DNA of 64,000 nt from a virus (taxonomy: Duplodnaviria > Heunggongvirae > Uroviricota > Caudoviricetes), in the IMG/VR virus record IMGVR_UViG_2513237251_000009, one strand, 5' to 3'. The position numbers were made by a program, and so were the translations under genes. Every line of letters begins with the position of its first letter. Within the stretch, counting starts at the first letter, position 1. Shown here piece after piece: positions 3,173-54,657 of this stretch. The notes under the pieces are model-generated. The model did no database searches. It was not told the DNA's origin and saw nothing but the letters and a program-made list of their open reading frames with translations.

Positions 3173-3244
3173 AAAAACCTCATTCAGTAATTCATATCAG
3201 TTTGCAGGATGTTTCATTAAATAAAATAAATGGTAATGTTCATT

Positions 3245-3820
3245 TCAATTACCCTTTATAATGAAGTTTCCTCTGGTATCGTCATAAATGCATTCTTCAT
3301 GTTTTACAATTATTGATGCCGTTATTGGTTCCCGGGTCAGTGGGTGGGGTAAGCCTTCACCAACCAAACGAGAAAATGCAGCGGCATCAAATAAAGTACA
3401 TACATCTGAACCATCTGAATTCTTCACAAAAATACCTTTTTCAGGCTGCTCCAGTGTAATTGGACACTGAATAGCCTCAAGCGGGCACTGAAGTCTCTCT
3501 GGACAAACAGAAAACTTACATTGAGATATTTTGTTCTGAATACTCTCTTGCGATTGTGCTTCACCTGAGTCCGAAAGCATACTTAGCATTCTCTCACCAA
3601 GGGCTCGAGGACCACTATTAAATCCCAAAAGCAATAACTCAGAAAGCAATCCGCCATTACCGCCACTGGATGAAAAGCGCCCATTAGTAGAATCATACAC
3701 AATACTGACAGTTTCACCACCGACTGTAATATCTCCGCGCCCATTGGCTACAATTCGGGCACGAACAACCTCCACCCCAAGATTAAATGAATGTGATCTA
3801 ATATCTGAGGTTAATGGCAT
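3245..3820 (-). CDS. nleG: NleG-family type III secreted effector
   Basis: 192 aa from ATG 3820 (SD gggag); CPITLEQPEKGIFVKNS...PHPLTREPI motif. Confidence 0.75.
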   Translation of the reverse strand: MPLTSDIRSHSFNLGVEVVRARIVANGRGDITVGGETVSIVYDSTNGRFSSSGGNGGLLSELLLLGFNSGPRALGERMLSMLSDSGEAQSQESIQNKISQCKFSVCPERLQCPLEAIQCPITLEQPEKGIFVKNSDGSDVCTLFDAAAFSRLVGEGLPHPLTREPITASIIVKHEECIYDDTRGNFIIKGN

Positions 3821-3892
3821 AACAAAGCTCCCTATTTTAATTTGAACTCCAGACTTAAATAGCTGTAACAAACATCCCCCATACGTGACAAC

Positions 3893-3920
3893 AAAAAACC
3901 GGAGCCGGACTCCGGTTTTT
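3893..3920. terminator. Bidirectional intrinsic terminator separating tail module from NleG cargo
   Basis: A-run, ccggag/ctccgg hairpin, T-run; same element recurs near 53748..53776 and 54616..54644. Confidence 0.5.
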
Positions 3921-3933
3921 GTGAAGCTGTCGG

Positions 3934-4203
3934 CTATTTCATCCCGCCAATATTTTCCCACGTCCCGTCAGCACGCAGGATTTGCAGCGGTCTTACCACA
4001 CACTGTATCTGCTTTTTATCCGCATCCAGTATCACCACCTGCGTGATTACCCTGTCCTGCTCCGGGATAATACCATTCTCATCGGACTCCAGAATGTCTG
4101 CCGGTCCCAGTCGCAGCTGTGCTGTAAGTAACTCCCCGTTTTCACGGTCATCATGCTTTCCGCAACCGCACAGACGCTGCATAATTTTTTTTAATATGTT
4201 CAT
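3934..4203 (-). CDS. Hypothetical 89-aa protein downstream of side tail fibre
   Basis: ORF with SD aggag before ATG 4203; identical copy at 54658..54927; no recognised domain. Confidence 0.45.
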   Translation of the reverse strand: MNILKKIMQRLCGCGKHDDRENGELLTAQLRLGPADILESDENGIIPEQDRVITQVVILDADKKQIQCVVRPLQILRADGTWENIGGMK

Positions 4204-4204
4204 G

Positions 4205-5432
4205 TCATTCTCCTGTTCTGCCTGTATCACTGCCCACTTCATCCAGCCCCTTAACATCCTGCCACGGCCCGTCACCAAACCTGACCTGCAAATGCTGAAA
4301 AAAACCCTGAACCCGTGTGGCATCTTTGGGGTCAAGAAAGGTCAGTCCGGTGATGAGTGCGCCATCTGTATCCGGGAACCAGCCATGGCTGTTTGTCTCA
4401 ATAATGTTTCCCGGCCCCAGACGGAACCGTATTTGCGTCTCCCCCGGGTCGCCCTTCGGCCCCTGAGGTCCGGTTGCCCCCACCGGGCCAGCCGCACCTG
4501 TTTCTCCTTTCGGTCCCTGTGGGCCTGCCGGGCCTGCCGGGCCTGCCGGACCAGCATCACCTGCCGGCCCCCTTTCACCGGTTGCCCCTGCCGGACCGGT
4601 GTCTCCACGCTCTCCTTTATCTCCCTTCGGCCCCTGAGGACCCGCGGGACCCGGTTCCCCCTTTGGCCGGGAGGCCCACCACCGTGGGGATTCGGTTTAC
4701 GGCCTCTTCCGCCGCTATCCTGCTTTGTTCCCGCTGACTGTGCGCTTTCTGCTGACTCCCGGGCTTTTTCTGTTGCGGTCGTTGCATCCTGGCTGCATTA
4801 CCGGCTGCACTTTCTGCCGTCTTTTTTGACAACTCAGCATCTGCTGCACTTTGTGATGACTCACTGGCTTTTTGAGCGGCCGCAGAGGCCGAGGACGAGG
4901 ACGCCTCCTCTGACTGCTTTGCAGCGGCTGCACTTTCTGCCGCCTGCCGGGCTGACTCCGATGCATCCCCTGCTGAAGTGTCAGCATTTGCCGCGCTCTC
5001 TTCTGCCTGACTGGCTGATATGCCGGCATTCCTCGCGGACGTCTCCGCCTCTCCGGCATTCTTCTTCGCCTCCTCAGCGTGACGCGCCGCTTCTTCCACC
5101 ATCAGTTCAAAACGACGCAGTGCCTCCGGCCGGACGTCATCCTCCGACATGGCACCGAGAAAATCATTCAGCGTCCCCGGTTGAGAATCTTCATACACGG
5201 TGATGGTCCCGGCATGTGACGGCGGGAACCCTTCCACCAACAGAATAACGCTGTACTGACCGTACTCAACGTCCATGCTGTAACGACCGGCTTCATCCGG
5301 ATTTTCAGAGGCCACCGTGTTCACCACCACCGTGGCGCTGTTACGTCTGGCTTTCAGTTGAATGGTGCAGTTCTCTACCGGTTTTCCTGTGCCGTCTTTC
5401 AGTACACCTGAAATCTTTACTGCCATATTCAC
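4205..5432 (-). pseudogene. Side tail fibre with collagen-like Gly-X-Y repeats, disrupted by frameshifts
   Basis: Split into 4617..5432 and 4205..4483; intact 409-aa paralogue at 54929..56158; differences are single-base indels in C/G runs around 4660..4800. Confidence 0.65.
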
Positions 5433-5490
5433 CCCACAAAAAAGCCCGCCTGAACCGGCGGGCTGTCATAACACTGTGTTACCTGGCTAA

Positions 5491-6090
5491 TCAGAACTTA
5501 TAACCGACACCCACGATGAAACCGTCAGTGCGCCAGTCGCCACTGCCGGAGCCTTCATAAGCAATATCAATGGCCACGGATTCGGTCGGGTTAAACTGCA
5601 CGCCAGCCCCCCACGCCAGAGACGTGTTGCTGTGGCGACCGTCATCACTTCCGGTCAGCACATCGTGCGTTTTCCCCTTGTTGTCAGTTACGCGAAGATA
5701 ATCCCCGGAGAAAGTCGACACACGGCTGTAAGCCACACCCGCCATCGCATACGCGCTGAACCATTCATTCACGCGCACAGACGGCCCCGCCATTACGCTG
5801 AACCAGCGGTTACGCACGGAATCTTCATGCCAGCGGGTATCGCTGTAACGGGTAAGCTGGCGATTCTTGTCTCCTGCATAGCTGAATGACGTCACCAGCC
5901 CCAGCGTGTCCGTAAATTCATAACGGTATTTCACGTTAATCCCGTTAAGATTATCGCTACCGGGAGCGCTCGTCCGGGCATGAAGATACCCCGCGCTCAG
6001 CGTGGCCTGCTGCTCAGACGCCCATGCAGGCGCGCCGGATACGGCCAGACAGATGGCTGCGGACAAAATGGCGGCATAAAGTTTACGCAT
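5491..6090 (-). CDS. lom: Lom/Ail-family outer membrane protein
   Basis: 199 aa, signal peptide, beta-barrel-like C-terminus ending GYKF; position after J as in lambda. Confidence 0.85.
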
Positions 6091-6157
6091 AATTACCTCT
6101 CGCTTTTCTGCAATAAAAAAGGCGCCATTTCTGGCGCCCGTATATGGGTTATAAAAT

Positions 6158-9100
6158 TCAGCTGATACTGATACCTGCTGTGGATTTTTTCATCACCACA
6201 ACCAGCAGATCGCTGATACTGGTTGTTGGTGTCCAGTTATTCGCTCCTGATGAAGATACGGTGAATGTCAGTGTCAGCGTCCCCTGTCCGGCAGGCATAT
6301 CTATAACTGAGGAAAATACGCCCTGAGCATCCGTCGTGGACTGATTAAAAATCTCCTGACCATTGCGGGTCACTCTTAACCGGCAGGTTGAATACCAGTA
6401 TGACTGTTGGTTATTACTGTTGAAATTCTCATGCTTACCACCGCGGAATAACACTGGCGGTATCATGACCTGCCGGTCAAACTTCTGATCATCACTGATT
6501 CTTACCGTGATGGTGCCACTGGCATAAGTGCTCGTGCGGGGGAAAGACTTGCTGACCGTTTTGACAATATCGCCTTCAATCTGGTTGGCTGACAGTTTCC
6601 CCTTAATCTGACAGTTCTCATTAATCGTGACGTTGTTGAGCGTCCCTGAGTTCGCATTCACACTGCCACTGATATCCGCATTTTTCGCCGTCAGTCGCCC
6701 GTCCGGCGTCAGGGAAAACGTCGGGGGATTGCCGGACGAGGTGATACTCACCGCAAACAGTCGCTTCAGGAACACGTCGTTCATGAACAGCTGATTCCCC
6801 TGCGCCACAAATAACGGCGTGCTGTTGCCGCTCTCCGGATTTATCATCGCGATACGGTCAGCCAGCAGCAGTATGTTGCTCAGTGGCTGGCCATCAGTAT
6901 CCTCAATCCCTGCACCAATCCCGGCCACATAGGGAATGCCGTCTTTCGTTTTTTGAACCTTCAGCATGTACAGCGCAGCCAGGTCATCATTTGTGTCCTT
7001 CTGCACGCGCTGTATCTGCTGTATAGTGGCGCTCTGGTTCTCCAGCGTTTTACTGACCGTCTGTGTGATTTCATTGCGGGTTTCCGTGATGGTGGTCTTC
7101 ATCTCCGCCATCTCATCCGCAAGCTGGCTGTTGTCTATCAGCTCCCATAGCCCCTGAGCCAGATGCAGTTTTCCTATTTTTTCCCGGAAAAATTCCAGAT
7201 ACCCTTCACCATCATTGCTGGGCTGCCCGCTGACTTCCACAAACGCAGATTTCCCCACCAGGTTGACGCTGCGCACGTAAAACCAGAAATCCGTCCCCGG
7301 CTTAATCCGGCTTCCCTGGACAGTCCACTGACTGCCGCTCCCCAGATAACGGGCAGATTTTTCCACCTGTGCCGTGTTCGTGATGCGTTTTTCCGAAAAC
7401 CAGAACTCAAACTGCACCGTCGGGTCATACACCGCCAGCACCGGTACCGCCGTTATCTGAAAATACCCCGGCGTCAGTTCAATGGTGGCGGGTTTTGCTG
7501 GCGCGTTAATCCGGAAGGTGGTGATGGCCGGTTCCCCCTGCTGGCCATAACTGTTAATTGCCCTGACTGTCAGGGTGTATTCCCCGAGCGGCAGACCACT
7601 GAAACGATGCTCTGTATCCGCAGTGATGGCGGTGGTCACCAGACGGCTGTCCTGACCGCTTCCACTGGTCAGGCGCAGACTGAAGCGCACGCCCTTCACC
7701 ACCCGCGGCGTGTCCCATTTCGCCTGCGCCAGATACTGGCTGTCAGCTGCACTCACCTCCACCGTCAGGTGCTGCACTGCCGGAGGGATGACGCTGTTCA
7801 GGGTGCCGCTCTGGTCGCCGTCAAAGTGCGCCCCGTTATCCACGATGGCTTCTTTTTCCGGTACGTGCTGCACTGCCGTGATGGCAAAGGTGCCGTCCGT
7901 GTTTTCCCGGATGGAGACACAGCGGAACAGGCGACGACGCAGTGACGGCAGGGAGAGCCCCCACACACCGTATGTCTCCACGCCATCCGGCAGGGTGCTG
8001 ACCTGTATCCGGTCCGGCGCGGGGTGTGCAGTGATGGCCACGCTCACCGGCTTACCGCTGCCGTTAATCAGGTTCACCGTGGCGGCACCGGTCTCCGGCA
8101 GGGTCACCTCACGGTCCAGTGTCAGGGTGCGGCTGGCGGCATCGATGGACAGGATACGTCCGCCGGTCATGGTCCCGGCATAGTCGTTATCACAGATTTC
8201 AATAATGTCACCGGGTGTGTGACGCAGCCCCTGTGACCCGAGCGTGAAATCCACCGTCTGCGTTTCCAGCAGTCCGGTCTTTATCACCCACAGCCCGGCA
8301 CGGTGGGCCTGACCGCGACTGGTACAGCCGAACGCATCCATCTTCAGCAGGTTGCGCCCGTAGCGCAGTATGGCTTCCGGGTCTTCCACCAGTTCCGTGG
8401 AGGTCTGCCAGCCGTTCTGCGGGTCGGTGTAATTCACCTCCACCGCCGTGTGGCGGTCCTTCAGGGCGCTGAAGCTGTAGCGAAACCCCACGCCGTTATC
8501 ATCCACCACCACATCACTGTTGGTGTACGGCCACACCACATCCGACGGACTGTCCTGAACGAACGTCAGCGTCTGGCCGTTCCATACCGGCATACAGCGC
8601 ATCGCCGAGCAGAAATCACTGAGAACGTCCCACGCCTTACGCTGTTGTGACAGGTACGCATTAAAGGTCATCCGCGGCTCTGTGCCCCCGAAACCATCAG
8701 GGACCATCTGGTCGCAGTACTGCGCAATGGCATACAGCGCCCACTTGTCCACATCCGCCGCCCCCAGGCGTTTTCCCATGCCGTAGCGCGGGTGAGTCAG
8801 CATGTCCCACAGGCACCAGGCCGGGTTGTTGCTGTATGCCGGTTTCAGGCTGCCGTCCCAGATGCCGCTGTACGTGCGTTTTTCCGGGTCATAGTTTGAC
8901 GGCACCTGGATGATGCGACCGCGGATATGGTAGTTCACCGTCATCTGCTGACCGCCAAACTGCTCCGCATCCACCTGCAGCCCCACAATGGCCGTGTTCG
9001 GGTAGCACTGTTTCACATCGATGATTTCGGTGTATGACGACCACAGCGTTCTGTTCTGCAGCTGGTCCGTGGTGCTGTCCGCCGTCTCCCTGACCATCCG

Positions 9101-9637
9101 GATGTTAAAGGGCCGGGGCGGCAGATTATCCAGAATCACCGACGCCAGGAACTGCGAGGTGGTCTTGCCGTTAATGGTGACATCCTTTTCCGTCACCCAG
9201 TTACCGTTACGCTGCAACTGAATCAGCAGTCGGACAGAAGAGTGATTACGGTCGCCCTTTGAGGTGGTCTCCAACAGTGACTGCACCCCGAAGGTGACCC
9301 GCAGGCGGTCAATGTTCGCGGACGTAATGGTGCGCGTCACCGGCTTTGCCTTCGTCACTTCCACGCCCAGTGCGGTTTCAGCTCCGGAGGACTCAAAGCC
9401 TTCCGGTGGTGTCTGCTCCTGCTCCCCGGCACGCCAGACCGCAGTCACACCGTGTATCACGGGATTACCGTCCGTGTCCGTCAGCGGGGTTTTGTTCACC
9501 AGAATACTCTGCAGCCCCTTCACCGGACCTTCAATCGGCCCTTCACCAATGGCGTCAATCACGCTCATCATCTGCGTGGACTTAAGATTGTCCTTTGCCT
9601 CTACCGGCGTGTGCCCCTTGCCGCCCCCTTTACCCAC
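6158..9637 (-). CDS. J: Tail tip host-specificity protein J
   Basis: About 1159 aa from GTG 9637 (SD ggagagggg); strong resemblance to lambda gpJ throughout. Confidence 0.9.
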
Positions 9638-9877
9638 TCTGTCCCCCTCTCCTGTCTGATGTCTGAATCTGTTTATGCCAGAAAACAACAGGCACCCCGG
9701 AGGGTGCCTGTGTCATGACGGAATAAAATTTCTGAAACTCTTCACATTTCCGGCAATTGCCTGTAGCCGCAATAATGACGCTGCATTACTTTTTTGATGC
9801 CTGAAAAATAACTCCATAACGTTAATCTTCATCGTTCTCTCCCGCAGCTCCGCTAACTCTGCGGGATTTTTTTATTT

Positions 9878-10555
9878 TCATCCCCGCCCGATAACCACCA
9901 CTTTCCCGTCTCCGCCCTCATCACGGGTGCTGATGTCCTGGGATATCCGTCGTGAACCAACCAGCATTTCACCATAAGGCACCGGCATCGGGTTCCCCTG
10001 GGCAATCATGTTATCCAGTGACGAAAAATACGTGTTCTGTTTACCGTTATCCGTCGCCCTGTACTCCGGTGTTTTTGCCTTCGGTGCCAGCATCTGGGCC
10101 ACACCGCCCAGTATCATGCTGGCACCCAGTGAGAACAGCATCGTGGTGGCAGTCAGCCCTCCGGCACTCAGGGCTGCGCCCCACAACGCCATCGTTGCGC
10201 CGGCGGTGAAGAAAGAGCCCACGATGGCTGCCGCCCCCAGCACAATCTGCAGTCCACCCTTTCCGGCTCCGGCCAGTCGCGGCACAATATGGATGACCGC
10301 CCCCTCACCCAGAGGTTCGTGAAGACGGGCGTACACCGCCTCCGGTGCCGTGTCCTCACCGCGAATACGTATCTGGTACCAGCCTTCGTTCATCTGACGG
10401 CGGAATCCCGGCATCTGCAGCGACAGGGCACGGATGGCTTCCGCTGCCGTGTTCACGTACAGGCTGAGGCGGCGGCCAAATCGTTGCAAATCCCCGTGAA
10501 GGCAGATGCGTGCCAGTGGCGGTGACGCCAGACAGAATGCGTTCGTCGTTGCCAT
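9878..10555 (-). CDS. I: Tail assembly protein I
   Basis: 225 aa; MA..LASP.ARICL.GDLQRFGRR... resembles lambda gpI. Confidence 0.85.
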   Translation of the reverse strand: MATTNAFCLASPPLARICLHGDLQRFGRRLSLYVNTAAEAIRALSLQMPGFRRQMNEGWYQIRIRGEDTAPEAVYARLHEPLGEGAVIHIVPRLAGAGKGGLQIVLGAAAIVGSFFTAGATMALWGAALSAGGLTATTMLFSLGASMILGGVAQMLAPKAKTPEYRATDNGKQNTYFSSLDNMIAQGNPMPVPYGEMLVGSRRISQDISTRDEGGDGKVVVIGRG

Positions 10556-11196
10556 TTTTCAGAATACCTCTCCCGTTTACTCAGTTGTTCAGGCAGATGG
10601 TGAAGCAGTTCACCGTTGCCGCAGTATATGGCGGCATGATTGGCCACCGATGCGCCAAAGCAGCACAGCAGGATATCGCCCGCCTGTGCAGAGGACAGGG
10701 GCACCCGGTAAAAACCAGTCGCCGCCATATTGTCCAGGTAAAGGTTCTGACCGTTGCGCCACCAGTCATCCTCACGCTCAAAATCCGGCAGCGTTATCCC
10801 CGCCAGATGGTATGCATCCCGGAACAGGGTGTAACAGTCCGTCACCCCGTGCTCAAAACGACGCCCGGTCAGGTGCGGCACACAGCGGAATTTATGAATT
10901 TCCCCCCGGCAGACCAGCCACCAGGGCAGGGCACTCTTTATCTGCAGCCGCCGGTCGGCCTCGCTCAGCCAGGGCAGACCACCAGGGTGGCTGTGAACCA
11001 GCGCCACAATCTCCCCCTGCATCTCTGCCTGCAGCCAGTCTTCCGGCGCAATACGAAAATACGCCTCCGGCTCTGCGGAGATATTCACGCAGGGCTGGTA
11101 CCGTTCGCCCTCCGGGGTGCCTATCACGAAGCCGCACGACTCCGCAGGCGCACACCGCCGGGCATGCACCAGAATCGCTGATTCAGTCTGTGTCAT
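10453..11196 (-). CDS. K: Tail assembly protein K (NlpC/P60 plus JAB/MPN-like)
   Basis: ATG at 11196 (MTQTESAIL...); HSHP motif; overlaps I as in lambda. Confidence 0.8.
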   Translation of the reverse strand: MTQTESAILVHARRCAPAESCGFVIGTPEGERYQPCVNISAEPEAYFRIAPEDWLQAEMQGEIVALVHSHPGGLPWLSEADRRLQIKSALPWWLVCRGEIHKFRCVPHLTGRRFEHGVTDCYTLFRDAYHLAGITLPDFEREDDWWRNGQNLYLDNMAATGFYRVPLSSAQAGDILLCCFGASVANHAAIYCGNGELLHHLPEQLSKRERYSEKWQRRTHSVWRHRHWHASAFTGICNDLAAASACT

Positions 11197-11206
11197 AAAA
11201 CAGGAT

Positions 11207-11905
11207 TTACTGCGAAAGTTTATTGATGGAAAGGAAACCGCCAAAATTAGCCACCATGCCGCGCATCTCACACCCGCGCATGCACTTGCTGCATCTGTCC
11301 TTACGGATATCCGTGGTGGGGTTGTCGAACTCATCCGCCACCGCAGGACCGTTATACCCGCATTCATCTCCCCGGTAATCCCACATACAGGTATTCGCCA
11401 GCATAATGCGACCGGGAAACAGCGCTCCGTCCGTCTCCGTCGGTGTCGCCAGCACAAACGAGGCCGTCATGGCCGTCAGCGATGACATCTGCTCCACCAC
11501 CCACCGGTCCGTCAGCTCCTGCTCAGGGTCTGCCTCAGGATTGCCTGCCACAAAATTCACCGCATCCAGAAAACGGGCATACACCCGGCGGCGGACCACC
11601 GTGGCCCCCACCAGGCTCTGCAGGTCCTCCGCCATCCCGGTGACCAGACCAAACAGATTCGACACCGTCAGCGACGGTCTGGCACTGCTGCCCTTCCCGT
11701 TCATCTCAAAGCCACTGCCGTCAATCGGGTATGCCTGATATTGCCGCCCCTGCCAGGTAACCGCCTCCCCTTTTTCATTCAGCTCATTGCAGAAAAAATA
11801 CCGCTCACCGCCCTGCGCCGTCAGGTCGATTTCCCAGAGTACCACCCGCGGTGACTGCTCTGATTTAACCGACTCGTTCAGACTTTCTTCGTGAATATCC
11901 TGCAT
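11207..11905 (-). CDS. L: Minor tail protein L
   Basis: 232 aa with Cys-rich C-terminus; resembles lambda gpL. Confidence 0.9.
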   Translation of the reverse strand: MQDIHEESLNESVKSEQSPRVVLWEIDLTAQGGERYFFCNELNEKGEAVTWQGRQYQAYPIDGSGFEMNGKGSSARPSLTVSNLFGLVTGMAEDLQSLVGATVVRRRVYARFLDAVNFVAGNPEADPEQELTDRWVVEQMSSLTAMTASFVLATPTETDGALFPGRIMLANTCMWDYRGDECGYNGPAVADEFDNPTTDIRKDRCSKCMRGCEMRGMVANFGGFLSINKLSQ

Positions 11906-12234
11906 CAGTTCACCACCTGCTTAAACTCCGCGCTGAACTCAACGCGCAACATCCCGACCCGCGCAGACCACCCGGCACAGGTCACCTTTATCTGCCGGTA
12001 TGCATAGGGTGGCTTCCACAAAAATGCCTTCCAGCCTCCGTGCTCTGCCAGGAACGCTTCCAGATGCCGGGCCTCCTCCCGGGTCACGGAAAGCGTCACA
12101 CGGTATGTTTTCAGGTCAGCATTCAGCCCTGCCGCCATACGCTGTGAGTACCCGTCACCAAAACGCACTTCACGCACCGATGGCTGCGAGTTCACCTCCA
12201 TATCCGGCTTCACTTTCCAGCGAAAGGTTTTCAT
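11905..12234 (-). CDS. M: Minor tail protein M
   Basis: 109 aa; resembles lambda gpM. Confidence 0.9.
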   Translation of the reverse strand: MKTFRWKVKPDMEVNSQPSVREVRFGDGYSQRMAAGLNADLKTYRVTLSVTREEARHLEAFLAEHGGWKAFLWKPPYAYRQIKVTCAGWSARVGMLRVEFSAEFKQVVN

Positions 12235-20947: not shown

Positions 20948-24628
<3,681 letters not shown>

Positions 24629-24654
<26 letters not shown>

Positions 24655-25174
24655 TCAGCAACCCCGGTATCAGTTCATCCAGCGCGGCTGCTTTGTTCAT
24701 GGCTTTGATAATATCCCGTTTCAGGAAATCAACATGTCGGTTTTCCAGTTCCGGAAAACGCCGCTGTACTGAGAGAGGGATCCCGTCAAGAATACTGGCA
24801 ATTTCACCTGCGATCCGTGACAGCACGAAAGTACAGAATGCGGTTTCCACCACTTCTGCGGAGTCTCTGGCATTCTTCAGCTCCTGGGCGTCAGCCTGCG
24901 CACGCGTAAGTCGATGGCATTCGTACTCAATAGTCCCAGGCTGGAGATCTGCCTCGCTGGCAGCCCTGTAATCCTCAACCTCTTTACGGAGTTTTTCATT
25001 TTCGATATCAGCTTCCCTCTGCGCATACCACTGAATTGCCGTGGCGGTATCAAATACAGATTCAACGCCCTTACCACCTCCGGAGACGCAAGGGAGCCCC
25101 TGAGACTGCCAGCGTTCAATCGTTCGCGGATCCACGTTGAAAATTTCGGCAAGTTTCTTTTTATTAACCTTCAT
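24629..25174 (-). CDS. nu1: Terminase small subunit Nu1
   Basis: 181 aa; wHTH N-terminus, lambda Nu1-like. Confidence 0.9.
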
Positions 25175-25349
25175 GAAACAGTCTCACAACAAATACAGGG
25201 TCCGACATGAAAGTGCCCGAAAATGACTTTTTCAGGCGTTTTCATGTCGGACCTTTACGGATTCGATATTAGAAAAAACAAATAGTTATGTTCGAGAAGT
25301 ACCGACATGATTTTCCCCGGAAAATTTTCATAAATAGCGAAAACCCGCG

Positions 25350-25361
25350 AGGTCGCCGCCC
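25350..25361. other. cos site, cosN 12-nt cohesive-end core
   Basis: aggtcgccgccc is the reverse complement of lambda cohesive end GGGCGGCGACCT; followed leftward by lambda-like cosB text (cgcgggttttcgctatttatgaaaatttt). Confidence 0.7.
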
Positions 25362-25560
25362 CGTAACCGGTCGGATCGCCGGAAAGGACCCGCAAAATGA
25401 TAATAATTATCATCTACATGTCACAACGTGCATCTACGCCATCAAACCACGTCAAATAATCAATTATGACGCAGGTATCGTATTAATTGATCTGCATCAA
25501 ATTAACGTAAAAGCAACTTCAGATAATACAAATCAGCAACACTGAATATGGGGCAACATT

Positions 25561-25785
25561 ATGTCATCAAAGAACAGAACCCGCAGAACAACAACCCGCA
25601 ACATCCGATTTCCAAACCAGATGATTGAACAAATTAACATCGCTCTTGATCTGAAAGGTTCAGGAAATTTTTCAGCGTGGGTTATTGAAGCCTGCAGAAG
25701 AAGATTAATTAATGAAAAATATTCTCAATTTGTACCCAACAAAGACAAACACGACCAGAGCACCTGTTCAGACAGGTTTACTTAA
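25561..25785 (+). CDS. Putative ribbon-helix-helix (CopG/Arc-like) DNA-binding protein
   Basis: 74 aa; basic N-terminus then RNIRFPNQMIEQINIALDLKG... typical of RHH fold; call by pattern only. Confidence 0.4.
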   Translation: MSSKNRTRRTTTRNIRFPNQMIEQINIALDLKGSGNFSAWVIEACRRRLINEKYSQFVPNKDKHDQSTCSDRFT

Positions 25786-25866
25786 ACGACTTATATATGA
25801 CACAAAAAGCGACCACTAAAGTCGCTTTTTCTTATGGTAACAGGCAATAACGCTCTCAGATATTTT

Positions 25867-26181
25867 TTAGCATTTTTTTGACCGCGCGTTTCCGGACGTA
25901 TTCTGTTCTCCTGTCCCTTTATATCGTCGGAATACCCGCCGCTCTTCAAATCCCATTCCCAACTCAGAATGTAGTCTGTTGACCGCTTGTTTTATTTCGG
26001 TCAGGTTCACCGGTGAAACCGGAGTCCGGCGCGCCTTACGCAAACACTCTGCTCGTTTCTGTGCCGCCACTTTTCTTTTCTGGTCATCACTTAGCTGTAC
26101 CATCACTTTTGCCCATCGTTCAGCTGCTCTCCGGTACAGTCCTTTTTTCTCCAGACATTCTGCCAGGTGATCATGTAGCAT
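25867..26181 (-). CDS. PerC-family transcriptional activator (Pch-like)
   Basis: 104 aa with GLYRRAAERW motif characteristic of PerC/Pch; AT-rich 460-bp upstream region. Confidence 0.7.
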   Translation of the reverse strand: MLHDHLAECLEKKGLYRRAAERWAKVMVQLSDDQKRKVAAQKRAECLRKARRTPVSPVNLTEIKQAVNRLHSELGMGFEERRVFRRYKGTGEQNTSGNARSKKC

Positions 26182-26644
26182 AAGTAACCTCCGTTTATCT
26201 ACAGACTGCCATCCTGAATTTACCGTCCTTAATAAGACAACAATAAAAAACTAATTATATAAAAACAATAAAAATAATATACAAAAAAACTAAACAACAA
26301 AGAAAAGCAAATCATATCTGGCATTTTAATTGAAAGAGCAATTACCGAACAAAAGACGCTGACTATATACTCAAAACCAAACAACAATTCTGCCAATCAG
26401 GTATCATGGCAACACACGGAATTACCATGTTTTTGCCTTCTCTGCCCATACAATACGGGCATATACTTCATACTCTATTGTAATATTTCTATCCATGTGC
26501 CCCACTCCATTTACCTGTAAATAATATTCAAAATATTTATCACAGAAATCGTTTTTGGCCATGAACTGAGCACACTATAAAGTCCGGAACTGACTCTTTG
26601 TTAAATTACCTTAACGTTACCAGTAACACCTTCATAACAAAACA

Positions 26645-27118
26645 TCACGGTATACACTGGGTACGGATATATTCCTGTGCTCCTTCCAGTTGCTTCTGCA
26701 TTGCCATCAGCCGTTCTCTGAGGATGAAATAATCCCGTTCAGCGGCTTCTGCCAGTCGGGGACCGGTTGCATTATCCACGCCGGAGGTGATGGGGGCTTT
26801 ACGCAAGGAGCCTGGACAGTTGGCGTTGATGCGCAGGCGCTTACGACCAGCGGCAACATCAGCACGCAGAGTTTCATTTTCAGCTCTCGCATCAGCTAAT
26901 TCCCTCGAGTATCTGGCATCAAGTGCAGCAACATCACGCTGGCGCTGCTGCATATCAGTAATGGTTGCATTTGCCAGCTCCAGCTCACTGACTTTTTTAT
27001 CGCGCTGCTCTTTGTAGGTTATGGCGTTATCGCGGTAATGATTCAGCCCCAGACTAAGCGCACCACAGACCACCAGCAGAATAACGGTAAACGCGGAAAG
27101 CATTCGGTTTATGCTCAC
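26645..27118 (-). CDS. rz: i-spanin Rz
   Basis: 157 aa, N-terminal TM, lambda Rz-like (NHYRDNAITYK..., AERDYF.LRERL). Confidence 0.85.
   Translation of the reverse strand: MSINRMLSAFTVILLVVCGALSLGLNHYRDNAITYKEQRDKKVSELELANATITDMQQRQRDVAALDARYSRELADARAENETLRADVAAGRKRLRINANCPGSLRKAPITSGVDNATGPRLAEAAERDYFILRERLMAMQKQLEGAQEYIRTQCIP
26707..26892 (-). CDS. rz1: o-spanin Rz1 lipoprotein embedded in Rz (+1 frame)
   Basis: 61 aa; lipobox LVVSAC and Pro-rich PPSPPAWIMQP as in lambda Rz1. Confidence 0.7.
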   Translation of the reverse strand: MRELKMKLCVLMLPLVVSACASTPTVQAPCVKPPSPPAWIMQPVPDWQKPLNGIISSSENG

Positions 27119-27260
27119 CCCACCAGCCCTGCCGAAGTCAACGCCATCCAGGCCATGGAAAGAAAAAGAGCAACCAGCATTAGTGAAAATGAAATGCCGA
27201 CAAGTACACAGAGGCTCTTCACCAGCGTTATGAGTTTATCTGATATCATTAGCCACCCCA

Positions 27261-27830
27261 TCAATCCGCCTTTGTTATTTTCCCTTTGCCTGTATCAGCC
27301 AGGACAAAATCAATCAGCATATTCGCTTCATTTACCAGCGTACGGATTTTTGATACATGCGCGGCTTTAACCTGTTTCCACTCATTCAGCCCGGTAGCAA
27401 ACACACTGGCAATGTTTTTATCCCGTTTCATGTCAGCACAAGCCTGGTTGAGTTCTTCCATCACGCTCATTTTACGGGGATTAACGACAAAACCCTTCGT
27501 CCAGTACTCGTAAAGAACATCGTCGCACTCTTCCTGATACCGGATGACCTTATCGCGGATTTCGGGTTTTACTTTGTTGGGATTAATGGTTTGTAGCCAG
27601 CCGGCAAGTTTTCGAAGTGGCATGGACACCATATTGCGTTGGTTCCCATCCTCAGCAACCATAACGATTTCCGTTATAGTTGACGCAAAACGCTGTCTTA
27701 ACTTAGCCAACTGTGATTGCCAGGCCAGCCCCATCCCCGCAACGACAGGTTTCATGGGAACGTATGGTTCGCCATTATGGTTAACTACATAAAGAGAGTT
27801 GCCGTGAAACGGCACGGCCATCATATTCAT
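27261..27830 (-). CDS. Putative anti-repressor (Ant-like) inserted between R and Rz
   Basis: 189 aa; recalled resemblance to phage antirepressor family; not verified. Confidence 0.4.
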   Translation of the reverse strand: MNMMAVPFHGNSLYVVNHNGEPYVPMKPVVAGMGLAWQSQLAKLRQRFASTITEIVMVAEDGNQRNMVSMPLRKLAGWLQTINPNKVKPEIRDKVIRYQEECDDVLYEYWTKGFVVNPRKMSVMEELNQACADMKRDKNIASVFATGLNEWKQVKAAHVSKIRTLVNEANMLIDFVLADTGKGKITKAD

Positions 27831-28100: not shown

Positions 28101-28634
28101 TTATCTGTCGATTCCCCAGCACGCCAGCGCGCTCTCCTGGTCACGACGGGATACCTGACCGTAACAGTTATTTGAGCGAATACGGCAGTCCCTGCCACCG
28201 TCCTTAATCCACCAGCGAATCGCTTCGCAGGCACCTTTTCGATCTCCTGCATTAATCCGTCTGTAAAACGTCGACGGGAAACACTTACCGGGGCCAATGT
28301 TGTACGGACAGAATGACGCAATCCCCGCTTTCTGGGGTTCGGTCAGTGGCACTCTGATGTTTTTCTCCACCCATGCCAGCGCCTTATCACGCTCAATGGC
28401 GTTAACCCGGTCGCATTTTTCCTTCGACAGCTTCATGCCAGGAATAACAGGCTTACCATCCACCCGGGTGGCTCCACGGCAGATGGTCCAGATACCCGCA
28501 CCATCACGGTATGCTGTGGTGTGGTTACCTTCCTTTTCATCCAGAAACTGGTCGAGGATTTCAGGCGCAGACGCCCCTGCACCAATCAGCGCCAGAACGG
28601 CAGCCGACAGGCCGTATCTGATTTTTGCGTTCAT
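28101..28634 (-). CDS. R: SAR-endolysin (lysozyme R)
   Basis: 177 aa; Gly/Ala-rich N-terminal signal-anchor-release segment then lysozyme-like region resembling P1 Lyz/phage 21 R. Confidence 0.85.
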   Translation of the reverse strand: MNAKIRYGLSAAVLALIGAGASAPEILDQFLDEKEGNHTTAYRDGAGIWTICRGATRVDGKPVIPGMKLSKEKCDRVNAIERDKALAWVEKNIRVPLTEPQKAGIASFCPYNIGPGKCFPSTFYRRINAGDRKGACEAIRWWIKDGGRDCRIRSNNCYGQVSRRDQESALACWGIDR

Positions 28635-32898: not shown

Positions 32899-33612
32899 TC
32901 AATAATCAAGCCCTTGCCTGGATACATATCTGTCTGGCGGGAAGCCATAATAGCGGTGAAATACAGAAATAAAGTAGGACCGGCTTGAATAACCACATTT
33001 TTCTGCTACAGCCTGTCCATATCCATACCGGGAACATAACATATTTACAGCAACACGCATCCGCTCTTCCAGCAACAAGCGACTGAACATGCCCCCTTCA
33101 TTTTTCAGTTTTGTCTTTAACAAACTCTCACTCATATGCAACTGTAGAGCAATCGCACCAAGCGTCCAGCTTGCTGATATATCTGTCTGAATTATCGCCC
33201 TGACTTTGGCACTTATGCTGGATAAACATCCACTTAAAAACAATGACATCCGTTCATCTGTTTCAAACAGAGACAGGCAGGCCATCATAAGAAACATATC
33301 CGTGACCTCTCCGGAAAATCCCTGGCTGGTAATTAAAGCCGCAGCCAACGCAGGATTGTTGGGTTCCAGCAACAGGTAAAGCGGAATGTCAGTCAGACGA
33401 GTCCTCGTCAGCTTATGCTGACTTTCCAGATATTGACTTACGACGGATTCGCTTATATCGACAATTTTAACTTTGCCATAATGCATAAGGAAAAGCTCCC
33501 TGATGCATTTGGTGGCCAGAACGACTGAGCCTGGCTTAAGTGACAACGTATCCTTTTCAAGAAAAATATTAATTGGGGAGCAAACCATGATAACTGAACA
33601 GACAACAGCCAT
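32899..33612 (-). CDS. AraC/XylS-family transcriptional regulator (prophage cargo)
   Basis: 237 aa with C-terminal double HTH (...YSSRSYFISVFHRYYGFPP). Confidence 0.8.
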   Translation of the reverse strand: MAVVCSVIMVCSPINIFLEKDTLSLKPGSVVLATKCIRELFLMHYGKVKIVDISESVVSQYLESQHKLTRTRLTDIPLYLLLEPNNPALAAALITSQGFSGEVTDMFLMMACLSLFETDERMSLFLSGCLSSISAKVRAIIQTDISASWTLGAIALQLHMSESLLKTKLKNEGGMFSRLLLEERMRVAVNMLCSRYGYGQAVAEKCGYSSRSYFISVFHRYYGFPPDRYVSRQGLDY

Positions 33613-45239: not shown

Positions 45240-46484
45240 ATGAGCACTGATAAAGAAGAATTTGCGCTATATTGCGAAGCAAAAAATGACAAAGTCAGAA
45301 AACGTCTGGGAATTAAAGGTGGTTTTTACTGGACTACAGCAAAAAAATTATCTGTTGCCATCTCCCGCTGCATTACCGCAATGGATGACAACGATTATGA
45401 TGAAGACGACTTTAAAAAACCCGTTCGCGTCCATTTACCCGTTGTGAATGACCTTCCACCTGAAGGCGTGTTTGATACCGAATTCTGCAACCGATACGAA
45501 AAAGGCGGGGAAGATGGCATTACAATGGTATTTATCGCGCCCTCTCCCTCCGTGCAGGAGAAACCAGCCAGTACTGACAATACCAACGTCAACGGCGAAG
45601 ACATGACGGAGATTGAGGAGAATATGCTCCTGCCGGTTTCTGGTCAGGAGCTGCCCATTCGCTGGCTTGCGCAACACGGCAGCGAAAAACCAGTAACGCA
45701 CGTTGCACGGGAAGAACTTCAGGCATTACATATAGCACGGGCGGAAGAACTGCCGGCTGTTACTGCCTTGGCCATTTCTCACAAAACAAAGCTGCTCGAC
45801 CCGCTGGAGATTCGCGACCTTCACAAACTGGTACGCGACACTGACAAAGTTTTCCCTAATCCCGGTAATTCAGACCTGGGACTGATAACTGCTTTTTTCG
45901 AGGCATACCTGGACGCTGACTACACTGATCGGGGTCTGCTGACAAAAGAGTGGATGAAAGGAAATCGTGTTTCGCGTATCACCCGTACGGCTTCCGGTGC
46001 AAATGCCGGTGGCGGGAACAAAACCGATCGCAATCCGAATTTAGTACACACCTTCGATACGCTGGATGTGGAGATTGCAGCAGCCACACTTCCGATGGAT
46101 TTTAATATTTATGAAATTCCGGGCAGCGTTTATCGTCGCGCAAAAGAAATCGTCCTGAAAAGAGAAAGTCCGTTCAAAGAATGGTCCGCAGCACTTCGCG
46201 CAACCCCGGGTATTCTGGACTATTCCCGCGCCGCTATTTTTGCACTTATCCGGAGCGCTCACCCTGAGTTTTATCACTACCCGGGACGCCTTCAGGGGTA
46301 TATCAACGCCTACTTAACGGAGACTGATCACGAGAACCCCAGCAAGGAAACTCTCACTGCTGCACGACATACACCGGAAAAAGATATCCTGGAAGAAGTT
46401 AACCGCGAACTGTCTGCTAAGCAGGAAACAGAAGAAGAAAATGATGAAGAAAAACCGCAACCATCTTGCGCAATGGCAGAATGA
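45240..46484 (+). CDS. Hypothetical 414-aa protein (YdfE-like position)
   Basis: Large ORF between ydfD and integrase fragment; acidic C-terminal tail; unknown function. Confidence 0.45.
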   Translation: MSTDKEEFALYCEAKNDKVRKRLGIKGGFYWTTAKKLSVAISRCITAMDDNDYDEDDFKKPVRVHLPVVNDLPPEGVFDTEFCNRYEKGGEDGITMVFIAPSPSVQEKPASTDNTNVNGEDMTEIEENMLLPVSGQELPIRWLAQHGSEKPVTHVAREELQALHIARAEELPAVTALAISHKTKLLDPLEIRDLHKLVRDTDKVFPNPGNSDLGLITAFFEAYLDADYTDRGLLTKEWMKGNRVSRITRTASGANAGGGNKTDRNPNLVHTFDTLDVEIAAATLPMDFNIYEIPGSVYRRAKEIVLKRESPFKEWSAALRATPGILDYSRAAIFALIRSAHPEFYHYPGRLQGYINAYLTETDHENPSKETLTAARHTPEKDILEEVNRELSAKQETEEENDEEKPQPSCAMAE

Positions 46485-47017
46485 TAATCAGAAGAAATCT
46501 GGCAAAAGACCGTTTTACAGTACCAAAAACACAGGCGGGAACCAATCGTGTGATTCACCTTATTAAGCCCGCAATCGACGCTCTCCGGAGTCAGATGGCA
46601 CTAACGAGACTGAGCAAAGAGCATATCATCGATGTTCACCTCAGAGAATTCGGCAGAACAGAGAAACAAAAATGTACCTTTGTTTTTCAACCTGAAGTGT
46701 CAGCGAAAGTAAAAAATTATGGCGACCATTTTACCGTTGACTCAATAAGGCAGATGTGGGACGCAGCGGTAAAGCGTGCCGGAATCCGCCATCGCAAATC
46801 GTATCAGTCGAGACACACTTATGCCTGCTGGTCGTTAACAGCAGGAGCTAACCCGGCATTCATTGCAAACCAGATGGGCCATGCAGATGCGCAAATGGTG
46901 TTTCAGGTGTACGGGAAATGGATGTCAGAAAATAATAATGCGCAGGTAACGCTGTTAAATACACAGTTAAGCGAGTTTGCCCCAACCATGCCCCATAACG
47001 AAGCGATGAAAAGTTAA
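46466..47017 (+). pseudogene. int: Tyrosine integrase, C-terminal catalytic fragment only
   Basis: 183 aa with catalytic-domain pattern (RHTYACW...HADAQMVFQVYGKW); N-terminal about 200 aa absent, overlapped by upstream ORF. Confidence 0.65.
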
Positions 47018-47054
47018 TTTTTTATTTATCAATTAGTTAGATTGAATGACTCTT

Positions 47055-47337
47055 GAAATCCATAATTCATAGATGTTTTTTACTATTCTGTGGGTTTTTG
47101 GGTGTTTTCTAAGTTTTTTCAGATGGTTGTATTTTTTCTAAAAATCCCTAATCTCGATTTTGCTGTTTATTTGAGGCCTTTTTATGTCCCATATATGCCC
47201 CACAGATACCCCGCAGCCAAAATCAACAAAATGCCAAAAGGTTCTGTTCCTGCCCTGCAACAAGAAATGCTGCGACGTGTCAGTAAACGTTATGACGATG
47301 TAGAAGTGATCATCAAATCCACCAGCAACGATGGCCT
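47055..47337. repeat. Direct repeat copy 2, first part (continues 48651..48765 after IS629)
   Basis: Matches 1276..1558; junction between prophage A int end and prophage B. Confidence 0.7.
47231..47337 (+). pseudogene. ydfK: Second ydfK copy interrupted by IS629 (3-prime part at 48651..48750)
   Basis: Same sequence as 1452..1558 then IS629 left end. Confidence 0.6.
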
Positions 47338-47379
47338 TGAACCGCCCCGGTTTTCCTGGAGAGTGTTTTATCTGTGAAC

Positions 47380-48270
47380 TCAGGCTGCCAGATCATCGTT
47401 TCCGATGGAAGCATAATAAGCTTTTTCTGCTTCTGCCGGAGGAGTATGGCCCAGCCTTCCCAGCAATCGTCGATTGTTATACCAGTCCACCCACGTTAGT
47501 GTGGCCAGTTCCACTTCTGCACGGTTTTTCCAGCTCTTACGGTGTATTACCTCCGCTTTGTAAAGACCATTGATGCTCTCAGCCATCGCGTTGTCATACG
47601 AGTCGCCTGTACTCCCTGTTGATGCCAGTAATCCGGCTTCTTTTAGTCGCTCCGTATAGGCCAGTGACACATACTGAGAGCCTTTATCGCTGTGATGGAT
47701 GGTGCCAGACGGACGACGGGCCCACAACGCCTGCTCCAGCGCATCCAGCACGAATGTCGTTTCCATAGACGATGAGACCCGCCACCCCACGATGTATCCG
47801 GCAAACACATCAATGATAAACGCCACATAGACGAAGCCCTGCCATGTGCTGACGTAAGTAAAATCAGCCACCCACAGCTGGTCAGGTCGTTCTGCCACGA
47901 ACTGACGGTTTACGCGGTCGCCTGCGGCAACGGCTTTCCGGCTGATGGTCGTACGGACCTTTTTACCCCGGAGAACACCGGCAAGTCCCATAACCGCCAT
48001 GAGACGTGCCACTGTACATCTGGCCACCCTGATTCCTTCCCGTAACAACTGACGCCAGACTTTACGCACACCGTACACCTGATGATTTTCATCGTATACG
48101 CGCTGTATCTCTCTCTTCAGCCAGTCGTCGTGCTGCGCACGGGCACTGCGTTTATCCGGATGATGTCGCTGTTGCTGACAATGGTAATACGTTGACGGGG
48201 CAATATGCAGTTCGCTGCATACCGGTCCGACCCCGTACTGCTCACGCAGCTTATCCAGCAGTGGCATCAT
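47380..48270 (-). CDS. IS629 transposase OrfB (DDE integrase domain)
   Basis: 296-aa IS3-family orfB. Confidence 0.85.
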
Positions 48271-48593
48271 TTTTTCCAGAGGCGGTCGAACTCCGCCTTC
48301 GCAAAATAAGCGGAAGCCTGGCGAAGGATATCGTTACTGCGGCGCAGTTCACGATTTTCACGTTCCAGCTCTTTCAGACGCTGACGTTCAGCGCTGGTGA
48401 GCCCACCATCACCGCCCCCGGTATCCCGCTCATGCTGGCGAACCCAGACACGCAGAGTCTCCGGCGTACAGCCAATCTTTGGGGCAATGGAACAAATTGC
48501 CGCCCACTGTGAGTCATATTCATCCTGACTTTCCAGAACCATACGAATCGCCCGCTGACGGACTTCGGGGGAAAAACGAGTATTTTTAGTCAT
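48267..48593 (-). CDS. IS629 OrfA (HTH)
   Basis: 108-aa IS3-family orfA, overlaps orfB. Confidence 0.85.
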
Positions 48594-53276: not shown

Positions 53277-53968
53277 GTCGATTGTTTGTGATTTCGCGCT
53301 GTAGGTATATTATCATTCATATTTAACTTCCTAAAGTATGACCTCGTAGGGAGATAAATGCAATACTTAAAGGTAGATTGAAATGATAAATTAGCGCTTG
53401 GTAAATCCAGAATTTCATAAAGAGAGAGGTGGTGTTTTTTCATAGCGCTGAGATGTAAGTTGCAACATGTATTATATGCAAGAGAATAGGGAGTACTGGA
53501 TACATTAACTCTATGTAATCCATTCAAGATATTAATGCAATTGAAATAAATAAGAAACTCTAACTCTCTCCCCTCCCAGGAGAAATCCACCAATCTGCCC
53601 TTCCATTACCTGCTGACGCATCTCCGCCATCTCATTCGCGAATGAAGTCGATGATATATATGATACTAATCCAGGCATTACCATATTCCTTCATACAGAT
53701 AAATATTTCCTCTGGGCTTCATAACAAACATCTCCCTGACATGACAACAAAAACCGGAGCCGGACTCCGGTTTTTGTGAATCCGTCGGCTATTTCATCCC
53801 GCCAATATTTCCCCGTCAGCACGCCAGATTTGCAGCGGCCTCACCACTCACTGTATATGCTTTTTAGCTGCATCCAGTACACCAATTACCACATCCTTAT
53901 ACCCTGAACATCTGTAGCATTTCATATAAGCAACTGGCAGTTAACATATAGCTTGGGTAATATTTATT

Positions 53969-54545: not shown

Positions 54546-54657
54546 ACAAAACTCCCTATTTAAATATTCATTCCAAACACAGGGAGTCATAACAAACAGC
54601 CCCCATACATGACAACAAAAACCGGAGCCGGACTCCGGTTTTTGTGAAGCTGTCGGG

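Follow-up and report, generated by a model that had tools for sequence, protein, structure and literature searches.

The stretch of DNA analyzed here, 64,000 nucleotides of the virus record IMGVR_UViG_2513237251_000009 (Caudoviricetes; to be referred to as the window), contains two open reading frames (ORFs), of 104 and 74 residues, between the lysis gene Rz and the cohesive-end site cos. Positions 1-32966 of the window are collinear with positions 2,157,035-2,189,999 of the Sakai chromosome (NC_002695.2), with 99.973% identity. On the strength of this collinearity, the locus is assigned to the junction of the lysis and packaging modules of Sp11, a lambda-like lambdoid prophage of Escherichia coli O157:H7 integrated at ydfJ. 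The best explanation for the locus as a whole, with a probability of about 0.85, is a pair of independent genes. One is pchB, and the other is the 74-residue ORF, a gene of the YlcI/YnfO family.

Genes at the junction of the lysis and packaging modules

The initial annotation had described a PerC-family ORF with an AT-rich stretch upstream, between Rz and cos, and a ribbon-helix-helix (RHH)-like ORF lying divergently beside cos. All of these elements are found where it had put them, both in the ORF listing and by direct reading of 24800-27200. The gene order Rz, pch, cos and Nu1 is collinear with that of Sakai Sp11, and pch occupies the lysis-to-cos position of a lambdoid prophage. The 1526-bp segment from Nu1 to Rz differs from Sakai Sp11 at two nucleotides, both outside pch: one gives the R67S change in the 74-residue ORF, and the other is a base just 3′ of the Rz stop codon. 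The 1.5-kb locus has matches of at least 99.9% to hundreds of E. coli O157:H7 chromosomes. The coordinates of all the features are collected in Table 1.

The 104-residue ORF matches the Pfam PerC family (PF06069) over profile positions 1-89 of 90, with an E value of 5.4e-44 and a score of 148.8 bits (cut-off 22.6), and the GLYRRAAERW motif corresponds to residues 14-23. The ORF is full length, with a GGAGG Shine-Dalgarno (SD) sequence upstream, and is identical at the DNA level to Sakai pchB (ECs_2182), so that the earlier PerC/Pch call was correct. All five pch loci of Sakai were retrieved and their proteins aligned to the window ORF. The identity is 100% for PchB, 99% for PchA (L6V), 99% for PchC (V58M), and no more than 40% for PchE and 30% for PchD, the weakly active or inactive variants. 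Nucleotides 16, 172 and 183 are the sole differences among the group-1 pch genes (Uhlich et al., PMC5931665). The same three positions are variable in our DNA alignment of the three loci, and the window has the pchB allele at each of them.

The initial annotation left it unclear whether this copy is an active Pch, and proposed reporter assays for activation of ler. Such assays are already published for strain PA20, with the pch genes named by their Sakai designations and the three diagnostic single-nucleotide differences (PMC5931665). The ler::lacZ activities are 12,513 Miller units with PchB, 9,087 with PchA, 7,783 with PchC, 3,001 with PchE, 1,620 with PchD, and 1,577 with the vector. PchB is the strongest activator of the five, with an increase of roughly 8-fold. 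The Pch of the window is the active group-1 type PchB, with the activation of ler taken from that study.

The 74-residue ORF belongs to the Pfam family DUF3950 (PF13132; E=1.8e-18, 66.6 bits, cut-off 25), and it also matches the NCBIfam family YlcI_YnfO_N (NF041551; 34.6 bits, cut-off 30) and phrog_949 (E=1.7e-31). The family assignments of the two ORFs and of their flanking genes are well clear of chance. The 74-residue ORF is divergent from Nu1 across cos, as first described, convergent with pch, and antisense to the late operon. Phage lambda has a homolog of 64 residues at NC_001416 complement 48109-48303 (minus strand, 2710-2904 in our extracted locus L005), about 200 bp from the right cohesive end. 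With respect to cos and Nu1 it is placed and oriented like the window ORF, and it carries no annotation in NC_001416. The RefSeq record of Sakai also has no annotation for the 74-residue ORF (there is a gap from ECs_2180 to ECs_2182), and the PGAP pipeline calls it in other strains.

This ORF has two parts: up to about codon 49 it is a conserved core of the phage backbone, and the rest, from about codon 50 to codon 74, is a tail that comes from the pch cassette. Over the 49 codons of the core, the comparison with lambda gives dS=0.69, dN=0.036 and dN/dS=0.05. Third codon positions account for 14 of the 19 differences, and there are multi-nucleotide synonymous swaps of Arg codons. For the Sp14 copy compared with the lambda ORF, dN/dS is 0.04. 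By these substitution patterns, the ORF is a genuine gene under strong purifying selection. Conservation was a point on which the initial annotation had let its proposal depend, and besides the low dN/dS there is its distribution: of 5426 complete E. coli genomes, 4170 have the core. Only 670, essentially those with the pch cassette, have the 74-residue form in full. The 859-bp core of the cassette (25786-26644) is present in 672 genomes, always whole and with a median of 3 copies. As there are 670 full-length and 4170 core genomes, the tail travels with the cassette and the core does not.

Four scans of viral contigs yielded 173 distinct loci, at which the neighbors of the gene were surveyed. 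The upstream divergent neighbor is Nu1 in 77 loci, with a median gap of 388 bp that includes cos, and HNH in 21 loci, with a gap of 41 bp and unrelated upstream DNA. The downstream neighbors vary, and include PerC, Rz, lambdap78/79 and KilA-N. In the HNH-type phages the homology begins at the start codon of the ORF, and the gene is therefore a discrete module rather than cos DNA. A role of YlcI as a packaging accessory is weakened as well, since the gene abuts HNH and not cos in these phages.

The initial annotation asked whether the 74-residue protein regulates pch. A dedicated regulator of pchB, acting through the AT-rich region or by convergent interference at the shared terminator, would fit the layout of the locus, as the genes lie next to each other, converge and have one hairpin in common. 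The full-length form and the cassette co-occur almost exactly (670 and 672 genomes). Moreover, K-12 ylcI is transcribed, and 50% or more of the RNA-seq samples show its convergent overlap with ybcW (PMC12288877), which makes antisense interference conceivable. However, the two co-occur because the tail is a part of the cassette, and the predicted DNA-binding core is found in roughly 3500 more genomes that do not have pch, as well as in lambda. The genes downstream of YlcI genes vary, and pchA, the reported major functional copy, has no adjacent core (due to IS629). Satellites that lack pch also carry divergent members of the family. With the core in 4170 genomes and in lambda, compared to 672 genomes with the cassette, a dedicated pch regulator is not supported by the data and is considered improbable.

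The other suggested role, an orphan or solitary type II antitoxin, is more improbable again. Antitoxins are found among the structural matches of the protein (see below), but these matches are at the fold level only and are not significant, and Arc, NikR and Mnt match equally well. A co-directional partner gene is conserved in none of the 173 loci, where the ORF is followed by a terminator and then by genes that are on the opposite strand or variable. No co-transcribed adjacent toxin gene was found in the window, where the hairpin and the convergent pch gene follow the ORF. A PADLOC search gave no meaningful match, and placed neither PchB nor the 74-residue protein in a defense system. The 74-residue ORF is a backbone gene, and neither a dedicated pch regulator nor an antitoxin. 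The pch cassette would have recombined into its 3′ end, swapping the C-terminal tail.

It is hardly credible that the ORF is not a gene at all, with its conservation due instead to sequences near cos that act in cis, cosQ-proximal packaging signals for example. The noncoding DNA from cosN to the start of the ORF (199 bp) shares 91.5% identity with the right end of lambda, more than the synonymous sites of the ORF, and the ORF has no promoter match and is unannotated in both reference records. On the other hand, the dN/dS value, the excess of third-position differences and the Arg codon swaps largely refute this explanation. In addition, homologs with 27-45% identity retain the hydrophobic pattern, the upstream DNA of the HNH-type phages is unrelated up to the start codon, and curated Pfam and NCBIfam families exist for the ORF. 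Least probable of all is a weakly active or inactive PchD- or PchE-like variant, or a decayed pseudogene, with no role in virulence activation: membership in the PerC family alone cannot separate active from inactive homologs, and O157 carries both kinds (PMC6265319), but the intact ORF, its SD sequence, the identity values and the leading ler::lacZ activity of PchB refute it.

The pch cassette and the flanking region

In a blastn comparison with lambda, homology around the cassette is limited to positions 25362-25708 and 26667-27049. It stops at about codon 49 of the 74-residue ORF and restarts in the 3′ end of Rz. The segment in between, about 0.96 kb, comprises the last 25 or so codons of the 74-residue ORF, a hairpin, pchB, and its AT-rich upstream region. 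Among viral contigs, the cassette is found beside both Nu1-type and HNH-type packaging modules. It is essentially absent from deposited phage genomes, in which a tblastn search with PchB and a 46-residue ORF of the upstream region found only fragments from induced EDL933. The segment is an insertion relative to related phages, it is atypical in composition, it has its own terminator and regulatory region, and its distribution is independent. By these features of its sequence, pchB is a moron cassette located between Rz and cos and oriented with the late operon.

The AT-rich region upstream of pchB, estimated earlier at about 460 bp, measures 463 bp. Its GC content is 32.8% (the whole window has 52.2%) and falls to 28% in one 200-bp stretch. 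The cassettes of pchA, pchB and pchC are nearly identical in both structure and sequence, including the distal 300 bp or so of the upstream region. The exception is a proximal patch of about 115 bp (approximately 26225-26340), which is plausibly the seat of the published differential regulation by LrhA. The hairpin, common to the convergent 74-residue ORF and pchB, is identical at the three loci. It was missed by a simple terminator scan because its A and T tracts pair together.

None of the three paralogs has the 46-residue ORF disrupted. Pfam and NCBIfam have no match to it, PGAP does not call it, and its differences among the paralogs (7 non-synonymous and 2 synonymous, pN/pS of about 0.8) are close to neutral. 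A role as the gene of a co-factor was rejected on these grounds, and the ORF is probably noncoding. The conserved distal block that holds it may instead be regulatory, and it contains the sole promoter-like site.

At the pchA locus of Sakai Sp4 (33180-33290 of our extracted locus L002), the end of an IS629 element abuts the left edge of the cassette exactly, and the YlcI-family core has been removed. The segment from pchA to the lysis genes is inverted there relative to the rest of Sp4, between IS629 and ISEc8.

The function of the group-1 Pch proteins, PchB among them, is documented (PMC5931665, PMC4764244, PMC6265319). Pch binds AT-rich DNA within regions bound by H-NS, and loosens the H-NS/StpA/Hha complexes at LEE1, within the LEE (locus of enterocyte effacement), and at effector loci, independently of Ler; this mechanism was demonstrated for PchA (PMC4764244). 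LEE expression and adherence depend on the group-1 pch genes (cited in PMC6265319 and PMC4456613 from Iyoda and Watanabe 2004), which the SOS response induces (PMC5931665, PMC6265319). LrhA acts differentially on pchA and pchB (Honda 2009, as cited in PMC4456613), and butyrate regulates pch through Lrp and LeuO (PMC4456613). The prophage small RNA DicF relieves an SD/anti-SD structure in the pchA mRNA (Melson and Kendall 2019, as cited in PMC7769764 and PMC9438474).

In the mechanism proposed here, PchB would remodel the H-NS/StpA/Hha silencing at the LEE1 promoter and other virulence loci, and ler and then LEE type III secretion would be turned on. Published work on PchA and the Pch group shows the silencing-relief step, and work on PchB shows the activation of ler (PMC4764244, PMC5931665). 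In the lysogen, pchB would be expressed from its own AT-rich upstream region, which, judged by its composition, is probably silenced by H-NS itself and is known to answer to LrhA and to butyrate/Lrp. Upon induction, Q-antiterminated transcription from pR′ would cross pchB on its way to Nu1, if late transcription follows the lambda model. [quoted passage not shown] Transcription of pchB would end at the bidirectional hairpin.

In NCBIfam, PchB resembles the ANR (AraC negative regulator) family weakly and below the threshold (E=0.046), and in the Protein Data Bank (PDB) it has a weak match to designed tetratricopeptide (TPR) repeats (E=1.6). There are hints in these matches of a TPR-like helical hairpin at the N-terminus of PerC. 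No solved structure was found for any homolog in the PerC family.

Table 1. Positions of the features in and around the pch locus, in window coordinates
Feature	Position	Strand	Basis and remarks
Terminase large subunit	22729-24654	minus	ORF listing
Nu1-type small terminase subunit (first packaging gene, left flank)	24629-25174	minus	Pfam Phage_Nu1, E=5.4e-90; SS52 and Sakai annotation
cosB-like inverted repeat GGTCCGACATGAAA ... TTTCATGTCGGACC, between cosN and Nu1	25199-25253		exact arms 25199-25212 and 25240-25253
cosN cohesive-end sequence, reverse complement of lambda GGGCGGCGACCT	25350-25361		exact match
cosQ-like heptamer AGGACCC	25385-25391		exact match; position relative to cosN as in lambda
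Imperfect palindrome ATCAATTATGACG/CGTATTAATTGAT, candidate regulatory site	25459-25491		inverted-repeat search; about 85 bp upstream of the 74-residue ORF
74-residue YlcI/YnfO-family (DUF3950) gene	25561-25785	plus	Pfam, NCBIfam, phrog_949
pch moron cassette, no lambda homology	25709-26666		replaces lambda 46409-48155 (bor, lambdap78, lambdap79)
Bidirectional intrinsic-terminator-like hairpin AAAAAGCGAC-CACTAAA-GTCGCTTTTT	25804-25830	both	folding; 10-bp stem on each strand
pchB, group-1 PerC homolog, transcriptional activator of LEE1/ler	25867-26181	minus	Pfam PerC; DNA-identical to Sakai ECs_2182
AT-rich upstream/leader region of pchB	26182-26644	minus	composition; alignment of three paralogs
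46-residue ORF in the pch upstream region	26422-26562	minus	matches phrog_2157 (unknown function) over its full length
Sigma-70-like promoter match TTAACA-19 nt-TATAGT	26574-26604	minus	relaxed scan; in conserved distal block
Rz spanin (last lysis gene, right flank)	26645-27118	minus	Pfam Phage_lysis, 1.3e-46; Sakai and SS52 annotation
Rz1, embedded in Rz	26707-26892

The heptamer next to cosN is presumably cosQ. A role for cosQ in lambda has been described (PMC9026076). The inverted repeat between cosN and Nu1 is perfect over 14 bp, and it is located where lambda has the R-site terminase-binding repeats of cosB. By this likeness to lambda cosB (PMC9026076), it would be the cosB equivalent of the prophage. 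It is unlike the lambda R sequence, which suggests a different packaging specificity. A scan of 24500-27500 against Rfam found no known RNA family and gave only sub-threshold chance matches (MIR8001 and PVT1); the MIR8001 match, on the cosB-like palindrome, was rejected as a spurious result of its hairpin-like symmetry. The candidate regulatory palindrome upstream of the 74-residue ORF is invariant in the alignment of the window with lambda. Another palindrome, GATAATAATTATC at 25399-25414, lies directly past cosQ and resembles an iron-box-like (Fur-type) sequence, and it is largely kept in lambda as GATAATGATTATC.

Two observations concern the rest of the window. The lysis cassette contains an antirepressor gene (P22-AR/ORF11CD3-type, 27261-27830, minus strand) and an ORF of about 48 residues (approximately 27115-27264). 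This site, between the endolysin gene (28101-28634, minus strand) and Rz, is unusual for an antirepressor. The tail genes at 53956-62746 are paralogous to those of Sp11 at approximately 3232-11921, with 87-93% identity. The far end of the window is presumably the neighboring prophage Sp12, and long direct or inverted repeats between the adjacent prophages are the result.

The fold of the 74-residue protein and its relatives in satellites

The RHH-like character of the 74-residue protein was examined by structure prediction and profile comparison. An AlphaFold2 model, calculated with an alignment of 20 sequences, has a mean predicted local distance difference test (pLDDT) score of 70, with values of 79-86 in the core. 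It shows an extended, basic N-terminus followed by two helices (residues 19-32 and 37-57). The Foldseek matches in the PDB are almost only RHH proteins (NikR, Arc, TacA, ParD, AtaR, MatP, and the ParB of pCXC100), but with E values of at least 1.1. For Arc, the match is at 1.7 Å over 39 residues. A search of BFVD gives a similar RHH picture, with E values of at least 0.57.

The comparisons at the level of sequence and profile are not significant. Of the profile hidden Markov models built from 20 and from 33 family members, the first gave CopG (9kkd) as its best RHH match in the PDB, with an E value of 0.81, and the second, broader one had no RHH match there. With hmmscan, at E values up to 10, the Pfam family RHH_6 was touched by one of 20 members, with an E value of 0.09. 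An hhalign comparison with Arc gave probabilities of 3-18%, and it consistently set the N-I-R-F-P segment in register with the N-L-R-W-P strand of Arc. This strand is the β-strand with which Arc reads the DNA.

No significant relationship to the RHH superfamily is detectable from sequence or profile, and membership in it is unproven. From the predicted fold, the 74-residue protein most likely works like an RHH repressor. Taken together with the position of its relatives in satellites, the product is most likely a small dimeric RHH DNA-binding protein, and probably a repressor or autoregulator made in the lysogenic state.

The family is small, with 108 cluster representatives among 1.84 billion proteins. 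Many of these are error-ridden reads of the lambda cos fragment carried by cloning vectors. Many database entries of this kind are frameshifted or chimeric, with the proteins P0043, P0139 and P0168 and many contigs of about 3.5 kb in ENA as examples. One is labeled Staphylococcus aureus, and DUF3950 is made to look more diverse and wider in host range than it is.

Divergent members of the family, with 27-45% identity, are found in elements of 12-20 kb that resemble phage-inducible chromosomal islands (PICIs). Their DUF3950 genes are located between the int/alpA zone and the primase (replication) operon, on the opposite strand. One such satellite (locus L008) sits inside a prophage of E. coli CP027459.1, within the packaging region, and helper-embedded PICIs are a described configuration (PMC10111431). 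It has two DUF3950 genes, at 5590-5772 and 6001-6363, whose proteins have 60 and 120 residues. One of them is preceded by two perfect TGGTACGTACCA palindromes (5545-5556 and 5578-5589), 33 bp apart. These tandem palindromes were noted in the one satellite examined for them. In the product of the other gene, the 120-residue protein P0212, DUF3950 is fused to the first 50 or so positions of the Pfam family Terminase_2 (45.4 bits, cut-off 26.1), the DNA-binding part, which resembles the N-terminus of the small terminase of the adjacent prophage. The fusion is limited to a single satellite lineage. Neither the paper on helper-embedded PICIs (PMC10111431) nor the review of PICI packaging by Feiss mentions the DUF3950 domain. 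The arrangement is suggestive of repressor-like regulators beside operator-like repeats.

A broader proposal is that DUF3950/YlcI is an unrecognized class of RHH DNA-binding regulators, conserved at the lambdoid lysis/packaging junction and with the unannotated, strongly constrained lambda gene among its members. PICI-type satellites would have taken over the domain for a repressor-like gene, next to palindromic operator-like repeats and in one case fused to a copy of the DNA-binding domain of the helper's small terminase. We offer this proposal tentatively, with the odds against it. If it is true, such RHH regulators could control late or packaging functions, or the conflict between satellites and their helpers.

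Several points weigh against the account of the two genes given above. One of the several genomic YlcI copies may regulate pch in trans, a question that lies beyond genomics alone. The AlphaFold2 model is a monomer with a mean pLDDT of 70 and no β-strand. Consensus promoter scans gave no convincing promoter for either pchB or the 74-residue ORF: the sigma-70-like scan upstream of the 74-residue ORF had no match, and the sole promoter-like match upstream of pchB is weak, with a spacer of 19 nucleotides. The crossing of pchB by transcription from pR′ is a step that we infer. Control by DicF and the anti-SD structure, shown for pchA, is unproven for pchB because the two genes differ at nucleotide 16 and at two positions of the 5′ untranslated region near the SD sequence. 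A search for an SD-sequestering fold in the pchB mRNA gave nothing distinctive (z-scores of −0.8 and −1.3).

Relation to known systems and significance

The closest known counterpart of the locus is that of PchB (ECs2182) in Sakai Sp11, where the ORF is identical and the flanks are the same, with Nu1, cos, the YlcI-family ORF, the terminator, pch, the AT-rich region and Rz. PchA (in Sp4) and PchC (in Sp14) each differ from the window protein at one residue, and the proximal 115 bp or so upstream of their genes are different. PchD (in SpLE1) and PchE (in Sp7) have the Pfam family and an R-R-A-x-x-R-W core in common with PchB. However, they are shorter (89-90 residues) and distant in sequence, and their genomic contexts are different. 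They give little or no activation of ler, and PchE represses curli and flagella (PMC6265319, PMC7369912).

PerC of the EAF plasmid (perABC) of enteropathogenic E. coli (EPEC) is a member of the same Pfam family and likewise has LEE1/ler as its target. Cross-activation has been reported (Porter 2005, as cited in PMC5931665). In comparison with EPEC PerC, pchB is carried by a prophage rather than a plasmid, lies outside a perA-perB operon and is present in multiple copies, and the sequence comparison of the two made here is at the level of the family profile.

The pchB gene is also comparable to bor and lom of lambda and stx of the Shiga toxin phages. All of these are accessory cargo for fitness or virulence, with atypical composition and with their own regulation and terminator. 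The insertion of pchB between Rz and cos is in the exact place of lambda bor. There are two differences, however. The cargo of pchB is a transcription factor acting on a pathogenicity island that lies far away, whereas that of bor, lom and stx is a surface protein or a toxin. In addition, pchB runs with the late operon, and bor is antisense to it.

The 74-residue ORF is in the same DUF3950/YlcI_YnfO family as YlcI (of DLP12) and YnfO (of Qin) in K-12 and the 64-residue ORF of lambda. [quoted passage not shown] The ylcI-nohD pair of DLP12 presumably has the same cos-adjacent, divergent layout on the K-12 map. In comparison, the tail of the 74-residue ORF (residues 50-74, approximately) is specific to the copies that abut the pch cassette. 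The predicted topology of the protein, with an extended N-terminus and two helices, would be like that of Arc and Mnt (of P22) and of the CopG/RHH superfamily, and its N-x-R-[FW]-P motif falls on the NLRWP of Arc. No significant sequence or profile relationship to Arc, Mnt or CopG was found, and this is a resemblance in possible working rather than an established membership.

For pchB, the finding is already known and adds no new biology. In enterohemorrhagic E. coli (EHEC), prophages carry three redundant master activators of LEE type III secretion, and pchB is one of them. Its position in the late operon ties the activation of virulence to the life cycle of the prophage and to SOS-inducing antibiotics, a link that is also in the literature. 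The 74-residue ORF is a member of a known family, and the remaining novelty lies only in the unstudied YlcI/DUF3950 family itself. The YlcI/YnfO family is among the uncharacterized y-ome genes (PMC11551758), and no functional data were found in the literature on ECs2181, YlcI, YnfO or DUF3950. The neighbor of pchB is a real, constrained and widespread lambdoid gene, independent of pch and absent from the reference annotations of lambda and Sakai. A testable handle on this y-ome family is offered by the RHH fold predicted for it and by its presence in satellites.

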